A stretch of 45,127 nt of DNA. It comes from a virus. Taxonomy: Duplodnaviria; Heunggongvirae; Uroviricota; Caudoviricetes. The stretch covers positions 1 through 45,127 of IMG/VR virus record IMGVR_UViG_2778261231_000002, one strand, 5' to 3'. Shown here piece by piece: positions 5,661 to 14,527 of the stretch (the stretch's first letter is position 1; every line of letters begins with the position of its first letter). A program made the position numbers and the translations under genes. The notes under the pieces were generated by a model. That model saw nothing but the letters and a program-made list of their open reading frames with translations. It searched no databases and was not told the origin of the DNA.

Positions 5661-6707
5661 TCACTCTGGTTCGCTGGGGAATATATTTATCAATTGCCCT
5701 GTTGAAATGTGCCCATTTTCTACAACCTCTAGGTATGAAATTTCAACAGTTGATTCTTTGGCTACAGCATTCAAAAACTCAAGAAGCTCATCAGTAGATG
5801 TTATGTCGGCTGAGGTTTTTATGGTGAAAGATTCACCATTTGAAACCCTTATGACGTCAATATTTATGTCCTGATTTGTTTCTCCCGAGCGACGAACGCC
5901 CGTGACATAAAAGTTATCTCTTCTAGTTTCCTTTTTTCGATCAATTGATTGTCTTTGGTTTAAGGTATTCAACTGTTCTCTATTTACCACTCTCTGACCA
6001 ATTGTTACCCTCTCAACTGACGAGTCTTGAGCAAGCTTTTTAAGCAACTTGCTTTTACCATCCTCGCCGTGAGCCAGAACCTCTCTGCTAATGTTTGTTT
6101 GACCGCTAATCAACAACTTGAGCACATTGTCTTGTGCTTCGTTTACCGCTTTGGTGCTTTTTTCCACCAATTGCACCTGAGAATCTTGGTCATGTCGCTG
6201 TGTTTCGTAGTACTCACTGATCCACTTATAGCCTACCGTGCTGGCAGCTAAGACGATAGCGGCGACGGCGCATAGTGCTTGCCTTCCTGTCATTTTGCCT
6301 ATCGCTTGAGTAAACACTGTCACCACTCCGTTTACAATCGGATCTGAGTCACCATCCGCTTGGCTTGAGCCTTCGCTTATTCGGTAGACAATATCCAGCA
6401 AACCTTTCTCTGCATCTTTTAGCTTCTGCCGATTATGAGTGCTGTGACTGACTACCGTAAATGCTTTTTGTATTTCATGCGTAAGCTCTGCCATACCAAA
6501 AAGCATTGACGCAGTCAATGAAGAATTATATCTATTTGGATCGCCTTTTACATTAATATTGATCTTTGGCCATCCACTGAAAACTACGTTAGGGAATGTG
6601 AAGTCGCTTGAGTCGATATCCTTCCTTCCGAGCATTTCCGTTACAAAAGATACAAAGTCGTCTTCTGACTTGATAACATATTGCGCAGGTTGATCAATCG
6701 CTGACAT
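5661..6707 (-). CDS. uncharacterized membrane-anchored protein in rexAB-equivalent position
   Basis: 348-aa ORF 76 bp downstream of cI on same strand; hydrophobic segment LCAVAAIVLAASTVGY; AT-rich. Confidence 0.6.
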   Translation of the reverse strand: MSAIDQPAQYVIKSEDDFVSFVTEMLGRKDIDSSDFTFPNVVFSGWPKININVKGDPNRYNSSLTASMLFGMAELTHEIQKAFTVVSHSTHNRQKLKDAEKGLLDIVYRISEGSSQADGDSDPIVNGVVTVFTQAIGKMTGRQALCAVAAIVLAASTVGYKWISEYYETQRHDQDSQVQLVEKSTKAVNEAQDNVLKLLISGQTNISREVLAHGEDGKSKLLKKLAQDSSVERVTIGQRVVNREQLNTLNQRQSIDRKKETRRDNFYVTGVRRSGETNQDINIDVIRVSNGESFTIKTSADITSTDELLEFLNAVAKESTVEISYLEVVENGHISTGQLINIFPSEPE

Positions 6708-6783
6708 TCTTAATCCTTAACATCCATTCCTATCACCCAAACGTCTCTTCAGGCCACTGGCTATCAGCTATGTGACGATGAAG

Positions 6784-7488
6784 TCACGAACTTTTCAGCC
6801 ACTCCCTTGCCTCGATGTCATCCAGATGGCGAGATTGCTTCAGAATACCAGCCACATACTCCACCTTTGCTACTTGATGATAAGGCAACGTTATTGGCCT
6901 GTGGTCTTGGTTGATGCTTGTAAATTGGTATTCTCCATCTCTGTCATAGCCAAGAACCTTAATCATGTTGTGTCCTTCAACGGTTCTGACAAACACCTCA
7001 TCACCCGGGAATACTTTGGTGTTAGGCTCAATGAGTACATATTCTCCTGATTTTATTCTAGGCCACATGCTGTCTCCTTTCACACGAAGGCCAAAGGCAT
7101 CTGGATCATCGCTATAAATTTTGAGCCACCCATCGCGCTCTTCGGTCATCTCGATGGCACCATCAACACCAAGAATTGCCTCACCAACCACGCGCACTAA
7201 CCCTTTTCTTACCTGACCGACAAAAGTTAAAGAATCTGAGCATGATGCAATTGGTGTTACATCATGTACCAAATCAAGCCACCCATTAGGTAACCCAAGT
7301 GCGGCTTCAAATTTTCTTGCTAGTTTATCCCCTATGTTTCGAGTGCTTTTTTCACCGGAGACTTGCGTGAGTTGAGAAGGGCTAACCCCAAGCTTATCGG
7401 CAAAGCTTGCATTAGTGTTACCCGCGATTTTTTTATGCTCATCTAGCAAAAACGCCAGATTCGATTTGCGAATATCTTTGTTTTCCAT
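6784..7488 (-). CDS. cI: CI-type repressor (HTH plus S24 LexA-like peptidase)
   Basis: N-terminal HTH; C-terminal GDSMWP with downstream Lys, typical autocleavage domain. Confidence 0.85.
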   Translation of the reverse strand: MENKDIRKSNLAFLLDEHKKIAGNTNASFADKLGVSPSQLTQVSGEKSTRNIGDKLARKFEAALGLPNGWLDLVHDVTPIASCSDSLTFVGQVRKGLVRVVGEAILGVDGAIEMTEERDGWLKIYSDDPDAFGLRVKGDSMWPRIKSGEYVLIEPNTKVFPGDEVFVRTVEGHNMIKVLGYDRDGEYQFTSINQDHRPITLPYHQVAKVEYVAGILKQSRHLDDIEAREWLKSS

Positions 7489-7499
7489 CTCACAATTCT

Positions 7500-7600
7500 C
7501 CCTCTATTTAGCAAATGGATAAATACGCAATATGATAAATTTACATTGCGGTTGATTTATCAAAATGGTAAAGTTATTCTGTATGATAAACGGAGGCACT
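7500..7600. promoter_or_regulatory. OR operator region (pRM/pR) with ATGATAAAT-type sites
   Basis: Sites at 7516-7524, 7532-7540, 7583-7591 and inverted copy near 7553-7560, between divergent cI and cro. Confidence 0.5.
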
Positions 7601-7601
7601 A

Positions 7602-7835
7602 ATGAGTAATGAACTACTACGCTGGCGAAAAGAGGCTTCTAGTGAGGAATGGAAGCGACTCGCCGCATTAGCGAAAACTTCAGTTGGCTATCTTGACCAG
7701 ATTGCATATGGATTTCGAAGAGCTTCCCCTGATAAAGCGAATGCAATCGAAGAAGCTACTCGTAATTTCACGGCCTATAAACCCGTGAAAAAGGAAAACC
7801 TGGTGTTCGTATCGCGTAGAGCATCAGCAGCATAA
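7602..7835 (+). CDS. cro: Cro-like repressor
   Basis: 77-aa HTH protein divergent from cI; GGAGG RBS. Confidence 0.6.
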   Translation: MSNELLRWRKEASSEEWKRLAALAKTSVGYLDQIAYGFRRASPDKANAIEEATRNFTAYKPVKKENLVFVSRRASAA

Positions 7836-7842
7836 GTAACAC

Positions 7843-7888
7843 CGCTCTTTTCACAATGGACATTCGTCCTACGTCGCTGACAAAGCGA
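7843..7888 (+). promoter_or_regulatory. nutR (boxA CGCTCTTTT and boxB TCGCTGACAAAGCGA)
   Basis: boxA-like 9-mer then hairpin with same loop as nutL boxB, downstream of cro. Confidence 0.5.
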
Positions 7889-7973
7889 GCCCCAAGATAT
7901 CTGACCAACTAAGGTCATATGCGTTTCCACGCATACCTTTCAACTAACTATTCACTATTGGAAATATTAAGAA

Positions 7974-8270
7974 ATGACACAAGCAAGTTACAGCAAGCCA
8001 ACACAGCGAGAAATTGATCGCGCTGAAACTGATTTACTCATCAACCTGTCAACGCTTACCCAGCGCGGTTTGGCAAAGATGATTGGCTGTCATGAATCGA
8101 AGATAAGCAGAACGGACTGGAGGTTTATTGCTTCGGTCTTGTGTGCTTTCGGAATGGCATCAGACATCAGTCCGATTAGCAGGGCTTTTAAGTATGCATT
8201 GGATGGAATCACAAAGAAAAAATCCCCGGCTGCCACCGAGGATTCTGAGCAAATTGATATGCAATTCTGA
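7974..8270 (+). CDS. cII: transcriptional activator CII
   Basis: C-terminus KKKSPAATEDSEQIDMQF parallels lambda CII. Confidence 0.85.
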   Translation: MTQASYSKPTQREIDRAETDLLINLSTLTQRGLAKMIGCHESKISRTDWRFIASVLCAFGMASDISPISRAFKYALDGITKKKSPAATEDSEQIDMQF

Positions 8271-8302
8271 GGGAATTACTGGATCAATCCACAGGAGTAA
8301 TT

Positions 8303-8947
8303 ATGACATACGAAAATGACAAATTCCAGGTTCTGAAGAGCATGAAGGTGCCAGATGATTTTAAATCAAATGGCTTTGTTTATGTGCTTTCTAATGAGTG
8401 CATGCCAGGAATTTATAAGATTGGGATGACTAAGCATTCACCAGAAGTTAGGGCTAAAGAAATTTCAGCCTCTACTGGCGTTCCTAAGCCATTTAAGGTG
8501 ATAGCAGCCTTTCATTCAAATAATCCCGCATCAGATGAAAAACTCATTCATAAAGCCTTTGCAAAAGAGAGGCTTAGTGATAATCGAGAGTTTTTCAAGC
8601 TTGAAGATAATGAGCTTTCTGAATCTCTAAATGAAATAAGGGCGCTGGTTGGCCCTGAAAGAAATGGCGAGACGGCAGAATACGCAATTTACGACTCATT
8701 CATTTCTTTTCGCCATGAAAATGAGCTTGATCTTAATGAGGAGCTTATAGAGCAAGGTCTGGGTAGTGTAGTTGGTCATCTTCCTGCGGTGAAAAATTTC
8801 CTTATTCGCGCCGGAATTGATTACGCGAAGCAACTGATAAGCAAATATAACTCATCGATAGTTATTAATACAGATGGCAGTGTGGTGATGGTTAAGTCTC
8901 TTGAAGCCCAATGCTTTGATGCGGAGGTTGGAAATGAGCCTGGCTGA
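8303..8947 (+). CDS. T5orf172/GIY-YIG-like domain protein
   Basis: GFVYVLSNECMPGIYKIGMT...RAKEIS motif; AT-rich; inserted between cII and O. Confidence 0.55.
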   Translation: MTYENDKFQVLKSMKVPDDFKSNGFVYVLSNECMPGIYKIGMTKHSPEVRAKEISASTGVPKPFKVIAAFHSNNPASDEKLIHKAFAKERLSDNREFFKLEDNELSESLNEIRALVGPERNGETAEYAIYDSFISFRHENELDLNEELIEQGLGSVVGHLPAVKNFLIRAGIDYAKQLISKYNSSIVINTDGSVVMVKSLEAQCFDAEVGNEPG

Positions 8948-9776
8948 AGTATTTTACCTGTCGAAGAGTGAACCTGTTGAACAGGAGCGAAGAGTGGCTG
9001 ATATCGATGATGGTTACACCAGATTCGCTAACGAGCTGCTGGAAGCTATCGCAAGTGCTGATTTAACCGCTCGCCAGTTGAAAGTTATGCTGGCCTACGT
9101 CCGGAAAACATATGGATTCAATAAGAAAACAGATCGAATAGCCGATGAGCAAATTGCTCAGTTAACAGGACTGTCAAGGCAGAATGTTAACAAGGCTAAA
9201 AAAGAACTGATTTCAATGAATTGCCTGTTTATGGATGGAAATCAAATCGGTGTAAACAGTGAGGTATCTGCGTGGCAATTCAGCAAGTGTCTCCAAGTTA
9301 GCAACTTTGTCTCGAAGTTAGAGACAAAAAATGTCTCCAAATTAGAGACACTCAATGTCTCGAAGTTAGAGACACACAAAAGACATTCTTTAAAGACAAA
9401 AGAAAATATTAATAAACCCCCTATATCCCCCAAAAAAGTTTCTCAGAAGTTCGACCCGCTAGAAACAGAGTTGCCTGATTGGTTATCAGCAGAAACATGG
9501 TTGTCGTTGGTTACCTATCGCAAGGAGATAGGTAAGTCGATCAAGTCTAAGCAAAGTGTCACTCAGGCTATCAACGTTCTAAGCAGAAGTCTGGAGAAGG
9601 GATATACACCTGAAGAAATTATAAACCAGAGCATCGCCAGTGGTTGGCAGGGGATTTTTGAACCCAAGACTCCAAAGGGGAAATCTCAACCGAGGCCGCA
9701 GCAGCGAGCTATGCAGGAAAACTTTGCCGCCAAAGATTACGGGCAAACTGAAATGCCTTCATGGGCGCAGGAGTGA
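8934..9776 (+). CDS. O: replication initiation protein O-like
   Basis: GGAGG RBS before ATG 8934; iterons inside gene; precedes helicase loader. Confidence 0.75.
   Translation: MSLAEVFYLSKSEPVEQERRVADIDDGYTRFANELLEAIASADLTARQLKVMLAYVRKTYGFNKKTDRIADEQIAQLTGLSRQNVNKAKKELISMNCLFMDGNQIGVNSEVSAWQFSKCLQVSNFVSKLETKNVSKLETLNVSKLETHKRHSLKTKENINKPPISPKKVSQKFDPLETELPDWLSAETWLSLVTYRKEIGKSIKSKQSVTQAINVLSRSLEKGYTPEEIINQSIASGWQGIFEPKTPKGKSQPRPQQRAMQENFAAKDYGQTEMPSWAQE
9287..9420. repeat. origin of replication: four ~19-bp iterons plus AT-rich tract
   Basis: TGTCTCGAAGTTAGAGACA at 9308 and 9356, TGTCTCCAAATTAGAGACA at 9332, degenerate copy at 9287; AT-rich 9375-9420. Confidence 0.7.
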
Positions 9777-9778
9777 AT

Positions 9779-10672
9779 ATGAATACGACAAATGGTTACA
9801 ATCTGGCACTGCAAAGGCAACTTGTAGACTCAAAAATCAATGACATTTCTGATCTGAAACAGAAACTTGAGTTTAGCAAAATTGGATCAGCATCAGATGG
9901 AATGTCAGTTACCAGCACAGTGGAAGAGTGCGAGAAACACGGTAAATATACTTCCTATGAGAAATATATGACCATCTCAGGAAAAAGAATTACTTCAAGT
10001 AAATCTGAGTGCCCACAGTGCCTTGAGGAGAAAATTCGTAAGAAAGAGATTGAACGTGAGCAGGCAGAACAAAGAGCAAGACAATCAAAAATTGAATATT
10101 TGTTGAATTCTCTCAATATTCCAGAGAGGTTCAAAAATTGCACTCTTCAGAATTATGAGCCTGTTAACGATGATGCAAAGCGAGTTCTTAAGGTATGCCA
10201 GGCATATGCCAGTAAGTGGCCTGAACGCCTTCAGAAAGGTGGCGGACTGGTCATGTGTGGTAAGCCTGGAACTGGAAAGAACCACCTTGCACTGGCTATC
10301 GCTAGGCACGCCATTATCGAGCATCAAAGCTCTGTGATATTTACCACTGCGTTGAAAATTGCCAGAGAGTACAAATCAACATGGTCTAAGGCCGCAACCA
10401 GAACTGAAGAAGAAGTCATTAGGCAATTTACGCATCCTGACTTGTTAATAATCGATGAGGTTGGCGTGCAGTTCGGCAGTGATGCTGAAAAGCTAATCAT
10501 GTTCGAAATTATCAACACCAGATATGAATACATGAAGCCAACAATCCTGATTAGTAATCAGAGCAAAGATGAACTTTCGGCATTCATTGGTGAGCGTGTT
10601 ATTGACAGGATGAATGATGGCGGCGGATGCACCCTTGCGTTTACATGGGATAGTTACAGGAGCAGATCGTGA
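9779..10672 (+). CDS. DnaC-like helicase loader (IstB-type ATPase)
   Basis: Walker A GKPGTGKNHLA, Walker B LLIIDEVG; N-terminal Cys-x-x-Cys pair. Confidence 0.8.
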   Translation: MNTTNGYNLALQRQLVDSKINDISDLKQKLEFSKIGSASDGMSVTSTVEECEKHGKYTSYEKYMTISGKRITSSKSECPQCLEEKIRKKEIEREQAEQRARQSKIEYLLNSLNIPERFKNCTLQNYEPVNDDAKRVLKVCQAYASKWPERLQKGGGLVMCGKPGTGKNHLALAIARHAIIEHQSSVIFTTALKIAREYKSTWSKAATRTEEEVIRQFTHPDLLIIDEVGVQFGSDAEKLIMFEIINTRYEYMKPTILISNQSKDELSAFIGERVIDRMNDGGGCTLAFTWDSYRSRS

Positions 10673-10959
10673 CTGGAAAAGAAATCATCCTGGAATATCT
10701 GAAAACTCATGAACAATTCTCCCCACATGAATTAGCACTGATTACCGGAATACCAAATAACAGAATCGCTCAAGCAGCAAGGCATATGGTGAAACAAGGG
10801 CATTTGAGTGTTGTTGAGCGTAAGTGGAAGACGGTTATTTATGCAAAACGCAAAGTGAAGAAGGAGCCAATTAAAAGAAATCCAGATGGTACGGGGTGGG
10901 GATGTGCAAATCCAATGACGGCGTTTATTAATAGGGCGCTTATGGAGGTAAGGCAATGA
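10669..10959 (+). CDS. hypothetical protein
   Basis: 96-aa ORF, start overlaps upstream stop. Confidence 0.4.
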   Translation: MTGKEIILEYLKTHEQFSPHELALITGIPNNRIAQAARHMVKQGHLSVVERKWKTVIYAKRKVKKEPIKRNPDGTGWGCANPMTAFINRALMEVRQ

Positions 10960-14371: not shown

Positions 14372-14446
14372 GGGTCAGTCGTATAAAGGTCATTACGGAA
14401 GGCTGTTAACCTTCTTATCGTGGTTCGAGTCCACGCTGTCCCGCCA
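14372..14446 (+). tRNA. tRNA-Asn (anticodon GTT), one acceptor mismatch
   Basis: Hand-folded cloverleaf: loop CTGTTAA, T-loop GGTTCGAGTCC, CCA end. Confidence 0.5.
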
Positions 14447-14451
14447 AACAT

Positions 14452-14527
14452 GCTGGTTTAGCTCCAATGGTAGAGCGGTCGCCTTGTAAGCGAATGGGTA
14501 GCGGTTCAAGTCCGTTAACCAGCACCA
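14452..14527 (+). tRNA. tRNA-Thr (anticodon TGT)
   Basis: 76-nt cloverleaf folded by hand: acceptor GCTGGTT/AACCAGC, D-stem GCTC/GAGC, loop CTTGTAA, CCA. Confidence 0.6.

Follow-up and report, generated by a model that had tools for sequence, protein, structure and literature searches.

Lambdoid phages are the textbook example of mosaic genomes, and the origin of the joints at which their modules recurrently meet is still argued. What, then, is a nuclease gene doing exactly on the joint between the immunity and replication modules of such a phage? The question is raised by IMG/VR record IMGVR_UViG_2778261231_000002, of which we analysed positions 1 to 45,127 (hereafter the window, meaning this whole 45,127-nucleotide (nt) stretch), from a virus of the Caudoviricetes. 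Here an open reading frame (ORF) encoding 214 amino acids (aa) lies between cII and the replication initiator gene O (Table 1). A preliminary description, made from the letters of the sequence, had called it a T5orf172/GIY-YIG-like gene, inserted between these two neighbours and overlapping the start of O, and had suggested nuclease-like defence or homing cargo expressed from pR. The answer that we favour, with a probability of roughly 0.4, is that the gene forms a free-standing cassette encoding a site-specific DNA endonuclease of the homing type (selfish or competitive), placed at the joint of the immunity/cII and replication modules.

The family assignment and the identity of both neighbours were borne out. 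Two Pfam profiles, MUG113 (E=7e-16, 59 bits against a cut-off of 22.3) and T5orf172 (E=1.4e-15, 58 bits against a cut-off of 20), match aa 24–112 of the protein, and the motifs GFVYVL, PGIYKIGMT and RAKEIS quoted in the preliminary description are all present. The same region has the alpha/beta fold of GIY-YIG nucleases, and its closest structural matches are SLX1-type structure-specific nucleases. In RefSeq the gene is named 'GIY-YIG nuclease family protein'; the PHROGs database returned two families without a known function, phrog_8430 (E=6e-68) and phrog_16524 (E=3e-38), and a search of NCBIfam with the protein gave no match. By profile, fold and motifs alike, the gene belongs to the T5orf172/MUG113 branch of the GIY-YIG superfamily. 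Across 27 homologues, with identities as low as 33%, residues G24, Y27, Y38, K39, G41, R50, E53, R95 and E96 do not vary, and H83, R90, F97 and F98 are likewise invariant in the family alignment over that range. Together the invariant residues form the GIY...YIG...R...E pattern typical of active enzymes, in which the arginine and glutamate are probably equivalent to R27 and E75 of I-TevI. A glutamate of this type underlies the activity of the T5orf172 nuclease Odn (PMC10448857) and is required for that of SNIPE (bioRxiv 10.1101/2025.11.03.685801).

The second half of the protein is restricted to this nuclease family. Its secondary structure runs alpha-beta-alpha-alpha-beta-beta, and its weak matches are winged-helix proteins (SmtB/ArsR, MarR, Pex and TubR), which hint at a winged helix and which we treat only as a lead. 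When this domain was searched with phmmer against 1.84 billion representatives, its own family and two spurious repeat proteins were returned and nothing else; Pfam, at E up to 5, gave nothing consistent, and a sequence profile search of the PDB gave no match. Purifying selection acts strongly on both halves, as codon comparisons show: relative to an 84%-identical homologue, the ratio of nonsynonymous to synonymous substitution rates (dN/dS) is 0.09 in the N-terminal and 0.05 in the C-terminal domain, at a dS of ~1.0, and the more distant pairs for which it could be computed range from 0.08 to 0.22. In composition the gene is foreign to its flanks, with 40.5% GC (35% at third codon positions, GC3) compared with 43.5–45.5% (GC3 46–47%) in cII and O, although the term 'AT-rich' used in the preliminary description holds only in a modest sense.

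That the gene has been inserted is clearest from phage mEpX1, which lacks it and matches the window at 96–100% identity on the cII side (7987–8311) and at 98–100% across O and the helicase loader gene (8979–10700). At the left edge of the cassette, ACTGGATCAATCCACAGGAGTnATTATGACA is common to both genomes and comprises the Shine-Dalgarno sequence, ATG and second codon of O; in the window the same signals start the nuclease gene, which has captured the ribosome-binding site and ATG of O. At the right edge, homology picks up again at GAACAGGAGCG (8979), which is codon 16 of O. The joint sequence itself, ACTGGATCAATCCACAGGAGTAATTATG, occurs once within the window; in the same or almost the same form it precedes O in mEpX1 and the nuclease gene in loci of E. 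coli, Klebsiella, Pantoea and Enterobacter; a strict motif recovers it in 50 of the 95 loci of the family survey described below. A contiguous lambda-type cII-O junction is also present in 1271 of 5426 complete E. coli genomes (coverage of at least 80%), which together with mEpX1 upholds the claim of insertion.

Downstream of the cassette, O has acquired a new beginning. On identical sequence, in phage Bas106 and in RefSeq/GenBank records, O is annotated as starting 14 nt before the nuclease stop, and we therefore place its start at the ATG at 8934, six bases after a Shine-Dalgarno sequence of its own (GGAGG, 8923–8927). The overlap between the two genes is real, if smaller than a mechanical list of ORFs had implied. 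Divergence of O covers its first 15 codons (45 nt); the resulting N-terminus, MSLAEVFYLSKSEPV, is still homologous to the lambda-type MTNTAKILNFGRGNFA, from which it has diverged, and the 42 nt of the empty site match nowhere in the window. A locus in Klebsiella aerogenes (L006:4001-4700) gives a separate picture, with the cassette flanked by ATGA on both sides in what looks like a clean insertion. The initiator there has a lambda-like N-terminus (MNTAEILNF) when it is read from the ATG that overlaps the nuclease stop, and the called start, 60 nt downstream, may be wrong.

The cultured phage Bas106 and 19 of the 5426 E. coli genomes also carry the gene, with 98.8–100% identity at the nt level; every copy is annotated as intact and lies between a cII gene and the same O allele; sensitive blastn found no diverged copies in E. 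coli outside these 19 genomes. The O allele is carried by 47 E. coli genomes, of which 19 are filled, carrying the nuclease gene together with the variant O 5' end, and 28 have neither, their homology to the window starting exactly at 8979. A search of IMG/VR and metagenomes for the variant O 5' end yielded 30 further loci, all with the nuclease gene immediately upstream (30/30, at 98.6–100% identity) and with the gene intact in each of the 29 complete loci. The window, Bas106 and 49 of 49 other loci combine the variant N-terminus with the nuclease gene, and that N-terminus is missing from every one of the 28 empty sites. Among the 48 loci checked there was no decayed copy (48/48 intact); one supposed example (P0032), in which the nuclease C-terminus was fused to O, proved to be an error-ridden assembly with cI and the nuclease gene also split, and was discarded. 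The gene is an optional cassette, present or absent as a clean polymorphism in otherwise near-identical phages, and these comparisons suggest that it has spread recently.

The flanks show where the cassette sits in the exchange of modules. In 20 loci the nuclease gene is at least 99% identical, and when the other 19 are compared with the window, the cII 3' region is unrelated in 15 of 19, O is 87–100% identical and the loader region differs in 15 of 19. Because cII and loader flanks vary around a constant nuclease gene, the gene sits on a boundary of genetic exchange, and the comparison further implies that the travelling unit is the nuclease gene plus O, with the nuclease gene as its left edge. 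Among other E. coli prophages, homology over the cII-O joint stops just after the shared ATG, and a DUF2740-family or hypothetical gene stands in place of O; since several alternative genes begin after the same ATG, the joint is a general module boundary. In E. coli ET776 (NZ_CP100909.1) there are two matches each to the nuclease gene and the O allele, and this cell may hold two cassette-bearing prophages.

An optional, foreign and boundary-sited cassette, tied to a diverged stretch of an essential gene, carries the signature of a free-standing homing gene, and it is for this reason that we favour a homing or competition endonuclease. In the proposed cycle, transcription from pR soon after infection or induction would cover the nuclease gene along with cII, O and the loader, the C-terminal domain of the enzyme would bind DNA, and the enzyme would cut related phage genomes that carry an uninterrupted cII-oop-O joint. 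Its own genome presents that joint split by the cassette, with O diverged over the first 45 nt. Repair from a cassette-bearing genome would then copy the cassette in (homing), or the cut might merely handicap a rival. The two-domain layout is that of GIY-YIG homing enzymes; the diverged O 5' end, where the target site would lie, is linked to the gene in 19/19 and 30/30 loci and never occurs alone; and the empty lambda-type joint, conserved and abundant (1271 genomes), is the type of site that homing enzymes use. T5orf172 genes have been treated as homing endonuclease genes adjoining essential genes, replication genes included (PMC10448857). The population pattern fits the 'homing cargo' of the preliminary description, a putative function.

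Several observations weigh against this interpretation. Our literature search found no T5orf172 gene with demonstrated homing. The left half of the putative site (8278–8305) is still intact beside the nuclease gene, and a constant block with variable flanks is seen at any lambdoid module boundary, nuclease or none, so that ordinary mosaicism predicts the block structure equally well. A gene found in 19 of 5426 genomes, against 1271 with an empty joint, is too rare to resemble the outcome of efficient drive, and its integrity in 48 of 48 loci, combined with a dN/dS of 0.05–0.15, suggests a benefit to the phage over a purely selfish cycle. Moreover, the position is kept before at least seven unrelated initiator families, among them those of Proteus, Salmonella and Burkholderia phages without the conserved joint, which a single DNA target cannot explain. 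Taken together, rarity, intactness, selection and the kept position favour a function useful to the phage and tied to replication or to competition between replicons.

The wider family shows how close the tie to initiators is. Full-length homologues of 211–238 aa form ~50 clusters in Enterobacterales, and we surveyed 95 loci of the family from genomes, IMG/VR and annotated phages. In ~90 of the 95 the nuclease gene is followed by a gene of at least 230 codons whose start lies within −115 to +85 nt, and eight representatives of these downstream genes all match PHROG replication-initiator, DnaD-like or primosomal families, of at least seven kinds. The gene upstream is usually cII and sometimes YdaT-like. 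The same arrangement of nuclease and initiator occurs in Proteus phage Brookers, Salmonella phage S107 and Burkholderia phage KL4, where similarity is confined to the nuclease domain. Subtypes of the nuclease (at least 80% identity) have one initiator type each and variable upstream genes. C-domain similarity does not track initiator type: the domains of the window and of L006 are 66% identical despite different initiators, and those of L010 and L019 share 46%, compared with 27% for a same-initiator pair.

Some relatives have features of their own. A group of diverged full-length proteins (P0029, P0031, P0035, P0037 and P0040; loci L010, L019 and L087), at 33–46% identity and 225–238 aa, have C-termini of the form ...GIYGPxxP...DFDDAPF, SDIPF, EPIPF or PxEF, and these ends resemble the tip of the single-stranded DNA-binding protein SSB. 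In E. coli that C-terminal tip (DFDDDIPF) docks replication and repair proteins. The nuclease protein of the window has no SSB-like tail. The family phrog_8130 matches both the 'MARSRNIKPGFF'-type initiator N-terminus (profile positions 11–102) and the T5orf172 domain (181–257), and therefore appears to be an initiator/nuclease fusion family of the Odn kind; phrog_8430 aligns to the nuclease protein over positions 275–439 of 439 only, indicating that longer relatives with an additional N-terminal part exist. One 'MARSRNIKPGFF'-type initiator (L072:3161-4183) contains an in-frame HNH endonuclease segment (aa ~120–195) that is absent from relatives such as L010; this would give the replication module a second nuclease element.

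This linkage invites a serious, though in our view less likely, alternative: that the gene encodes a replication-linked accessory nuclease, made with O and the loader, which benefits the phage without homing. Its targets would be DNA structures or replicons in competition with the phage (host forks, co-resident prophages, satellites or plasmids), with the release of replisome components or the removal of rivals as possible gains, and it would owe its specificity to the C-terminal domain or to partner proteins, not to a single DNA sequence. The position close to initiators of differing families, the pairing of each subtype with one initiator type and the SLX1-type structural matches all point this way, as do strong purifying selection with no pseudogenes found, the SSB-tip-like ends (DFDDxPF, EPIPF, PxEF) of several diverged homologues and the existence of phrog_8130. 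Set against them are the absence of such a tail from the window protein, a C-domain whose similarity is independent of initiator type and which is unlike the DNA-binding domain of O (hhalign probability 0.3%), and a linkage that could be purely physical, because the nuclease and initiator genes overlap. The gene is also rare and dispensable. Here the preliminary description is of interest, since it had taken conservation at this junction across the phage group, combined with a need in replication, as speaking against cargo: the family does keep its junction position across many phages, but the gene is dispensable for replication, given its absence from mEpX1, from lambda-type prophages and from 28 of the 47 genomes that share the O allele.

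Whether the gene could instead protect a lysogen depends on when it is expressed. Its host operon is a standard lambdoid early-right operon, in which cII is 97–98% identical at the nt level to cII of HK97 and mEpX1; a 32-nt gap separates cII from the nuclease gene, which in turn overlaps O by 14 nt. A consensus scan, which is weak evidence, found neither a promoter-like site upstream of the nuclease gene nor a terminator after it, and the only plus-strand promoter-like sites that it returned were a pR-like one at 7508–7536 and a weak one within the nuclease gene. With no promoter or terminator of its own in that scan, the gene is probably early operon cargo transcribed from pR, in agreement with the preliminary description; the scan result, the gap and the overlap also speak against a lambdoid 'moron'.

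Such a gene would presumably be shut off in a lysogen by the cI-like repressor, and we consider it improbable that it encodes an anti-phage defence or superinfection-exclusion nuclease guarding the lysogen. PADLOC does match the protein to PDC-S57 (E=4.5e-29) and PD-Lambda-1 (E=4e-12), and accessory genes of prophages are often defences. PD-Lambda-1 (SNIPE) is moreover a proven defence in which the GIY-YIG domain is essential (bioRxiv 10.1101/2025.11.03.685801). However, in the window protein and in seven relatives these matches span the nuclease domain alone, PDC-S57 is merely a candidate system, Pfam finds no DUF4041, and neither the sequence nor the model shows an apparent transmembrane segment (no formal test was made). 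Because the matches reflect a shared domain and the gene should be silent in a prophage, the defence function that had been suggested found little support.

The cassette also alters the signals on the opposite strand of the joint. Across the end of cII and the joint runs a putative antisense RNA that, from what is known of lambda, we take to be oop-like. It has a terminator-like site at 8246–8219 (minus strand) and a fold of −30.4 kcal/mol (z = −3.7); a search of 6500–10000 with Rfam returned no oop or other RNA family, only sub-threshold chance matches. The minus strand of the joint 8278–8305 holds the 5' part of this RNA and a −10-like CATAAT (8305–8300), which is retained, whereas in place of the lambda-type −35 (in mEpX1, TTGAGT) stands TGGAAT (8328–8323), within the nuclease gene. 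As a result of the cassette, oop may be expressed less strongly and the control of cII altered. By rewiring the translation of essential O and displacing the −35 of the oop promoter, it may shift the balance between lysis and lysogeny.

Its position over the oop promoter region, with the −10-like element kept and the −35 exchanged, would also fit a protein that had become a domesticated, non-cutting DNA-binding regulator, acting at the cII-oop-O joint to tune cII/oop or O, and hence lysis and lysogeny, comparable with I-TevI autorepression or PLE CapR. Repressors are documented among the relatives of homing enzymes (PMC10448857). In contrast, the catalytic-type residues are all invariant down to 33% identity, which would be unexpected had cutting been lost; for that reason this is the least likely of the explanations considered, and we regard it as highly improbable.

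Table 1. Features of the nuclease locus and its surroundings, in coordinates of the window.
Feature	Position	Strand	Remarks
cI-like repressor	6784-7488	-	
cro-like gene	7602-7835		
cII, 98 aa, upstream neighbour	7974..8270	+	Phage_CII E=5e-34
oop-like antisense RNA	8215..8295	-	two hairpins, the second a terminator with U run
Conserved joint ACTGGATCAATCCACAGGAGTAATTATG	8278..8305	+	former Shine-Dalgarno (AGGAG 8293-8297) and ATG of O, now serving the nuclease gene
T5orf172/GIY-YIG nuclease gene, 214 aa	8303..8947	+	ATG-to-TGA ORF
Segment absent from empty site	8312..8978	+	667 nt in place of 42 nt of lambda-type O 5' end (mEpX1 alignment)
Nuclease domain, aa 24-112	8372..8638	+	GIY-YIG fold
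C-terminal domain, aa 113-214	8639..8944	+	restricted to this nuclease family; secondary-structure order winged-helix-like
Replication initiator O, 280 aa	8934..9776	+	variant N-terminus MSLAEVFYLSKSEPV; Phage_rep_O E=4e-36
Origin iterons inside O	9285..9379	.	four TGTCTC-N-GAGACA-type palindromic repeats, ~24 nt spacing
DnaC-like helicase loader, next after O in replication module	9761..10672	+	IstB_IS21 and phrog_50 matches

Beyond the joint, the origin iterons encode a repeated SKLET peptide motif. A 348-aa ORF (5661–6707, minus strand) comes immediately downstream of the cI-like repressor, where lambda has rexAB; phrog_6191, of unknown function, is the sole match, with Pfam and PADLOC both empty, and the ORF is a candidate for an exclusion or defence gene expressed in the lysogen. 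In the late-regulatory region, at 14372–14527 (plus strand), two tRNA genes (Asn-GTT and Thr-TGT) lie side by side.

Returning to the homing or competition endonuclease, we see its interest in the place where it is found. Our literature searches returned no description of the family's fixed position at the cII-initiator joint in temperate phages, nor of its family-specific second domain; the gene is phage cargo of a known kind in a position not described before. A nuclease exactly on the immunity/replication joint offers a test bed for nuclease-driven exchange in temperate phages, and mEpX1 as a natural empty-site partner together with the cultured carrier Bas106 provides a ready experimental pair with which the homing question is directly testable. 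More broadly, and more doubtfully, the family could be an active endonuclease system of temperate lambdoid phages that cuts the cII-oop-O joint of rivals or replication intermediates, thus helping to create and move the mosaic boundary between immunity and replication modules, with some members joining the host SSB network through an SSB-like tip. If so, a concrete enzyme, open to test, would lie behind one of the classic recombination joints of lambdoid phages; if the gene is only a passenger, it still shows that its PADLOC 'defence' match is an effect of a shared domain.

Known systems share parts of this picture. The T5orf172 homing genes of phages such as ICP1 and T5-like phages (Barth, Dunham & Seed 2023, PMC10448857) have the same nuclease domain and are likewise free-standing beside an essential gene; sporadic presence, a position at an exchange boundary and a nuclease joined to a separate second domain are also common to both. 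Those examples are from lytic phages, and many carry domains that bind DNA through a zinc finger (CapR, DUF723, DUF4397), whereas the nuclease of the window has a temperate lambdoid host, a family-specific second domain without a cysteine motif and a position conserved across genera. SNIPE, with a transmembrane anchor, DUF4041 and a C-terminal GIY-YIG nuclease in ~490 aa (bioRxiv 10.1101/2025.11.03.685801), and PDC-S57 are homologous to the window protein in the nuclease domain, but its gene lies in a repressed early-lytic operon rather than in a defence island. We tested the architecture that defines each of these systems, and that of Odn, and conclude from the outcome that the protein is of none of these types. 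PD-Lambda-1 (SNIPE) is matched only at profile positions ~350–450 of ~495, by a protein of 214 aa without DUF4041; PDC-S57 profiles, 212–245 positions long, are matched at positions 3–94 of 212 by the window protein and 3–103 by seven relatives; and an Odn-type origin, with the C-domain borrowed from the initiator, is contradicted by the hhalign probability of 0.3% between the C-domain and the N-terminal profile of O. Odn of ICP1 is, in the summary of PMC8263062 given by PMC10448857, an origin-directed nuclease of the T5orf172 type whose RepA_N initiator domain is borrowed. Unlike Odn, the nuclease and initiator of the window are separate, overlapping genes; in both, a T5orf172 nuclease is coupled to the biology of a replication initiator.
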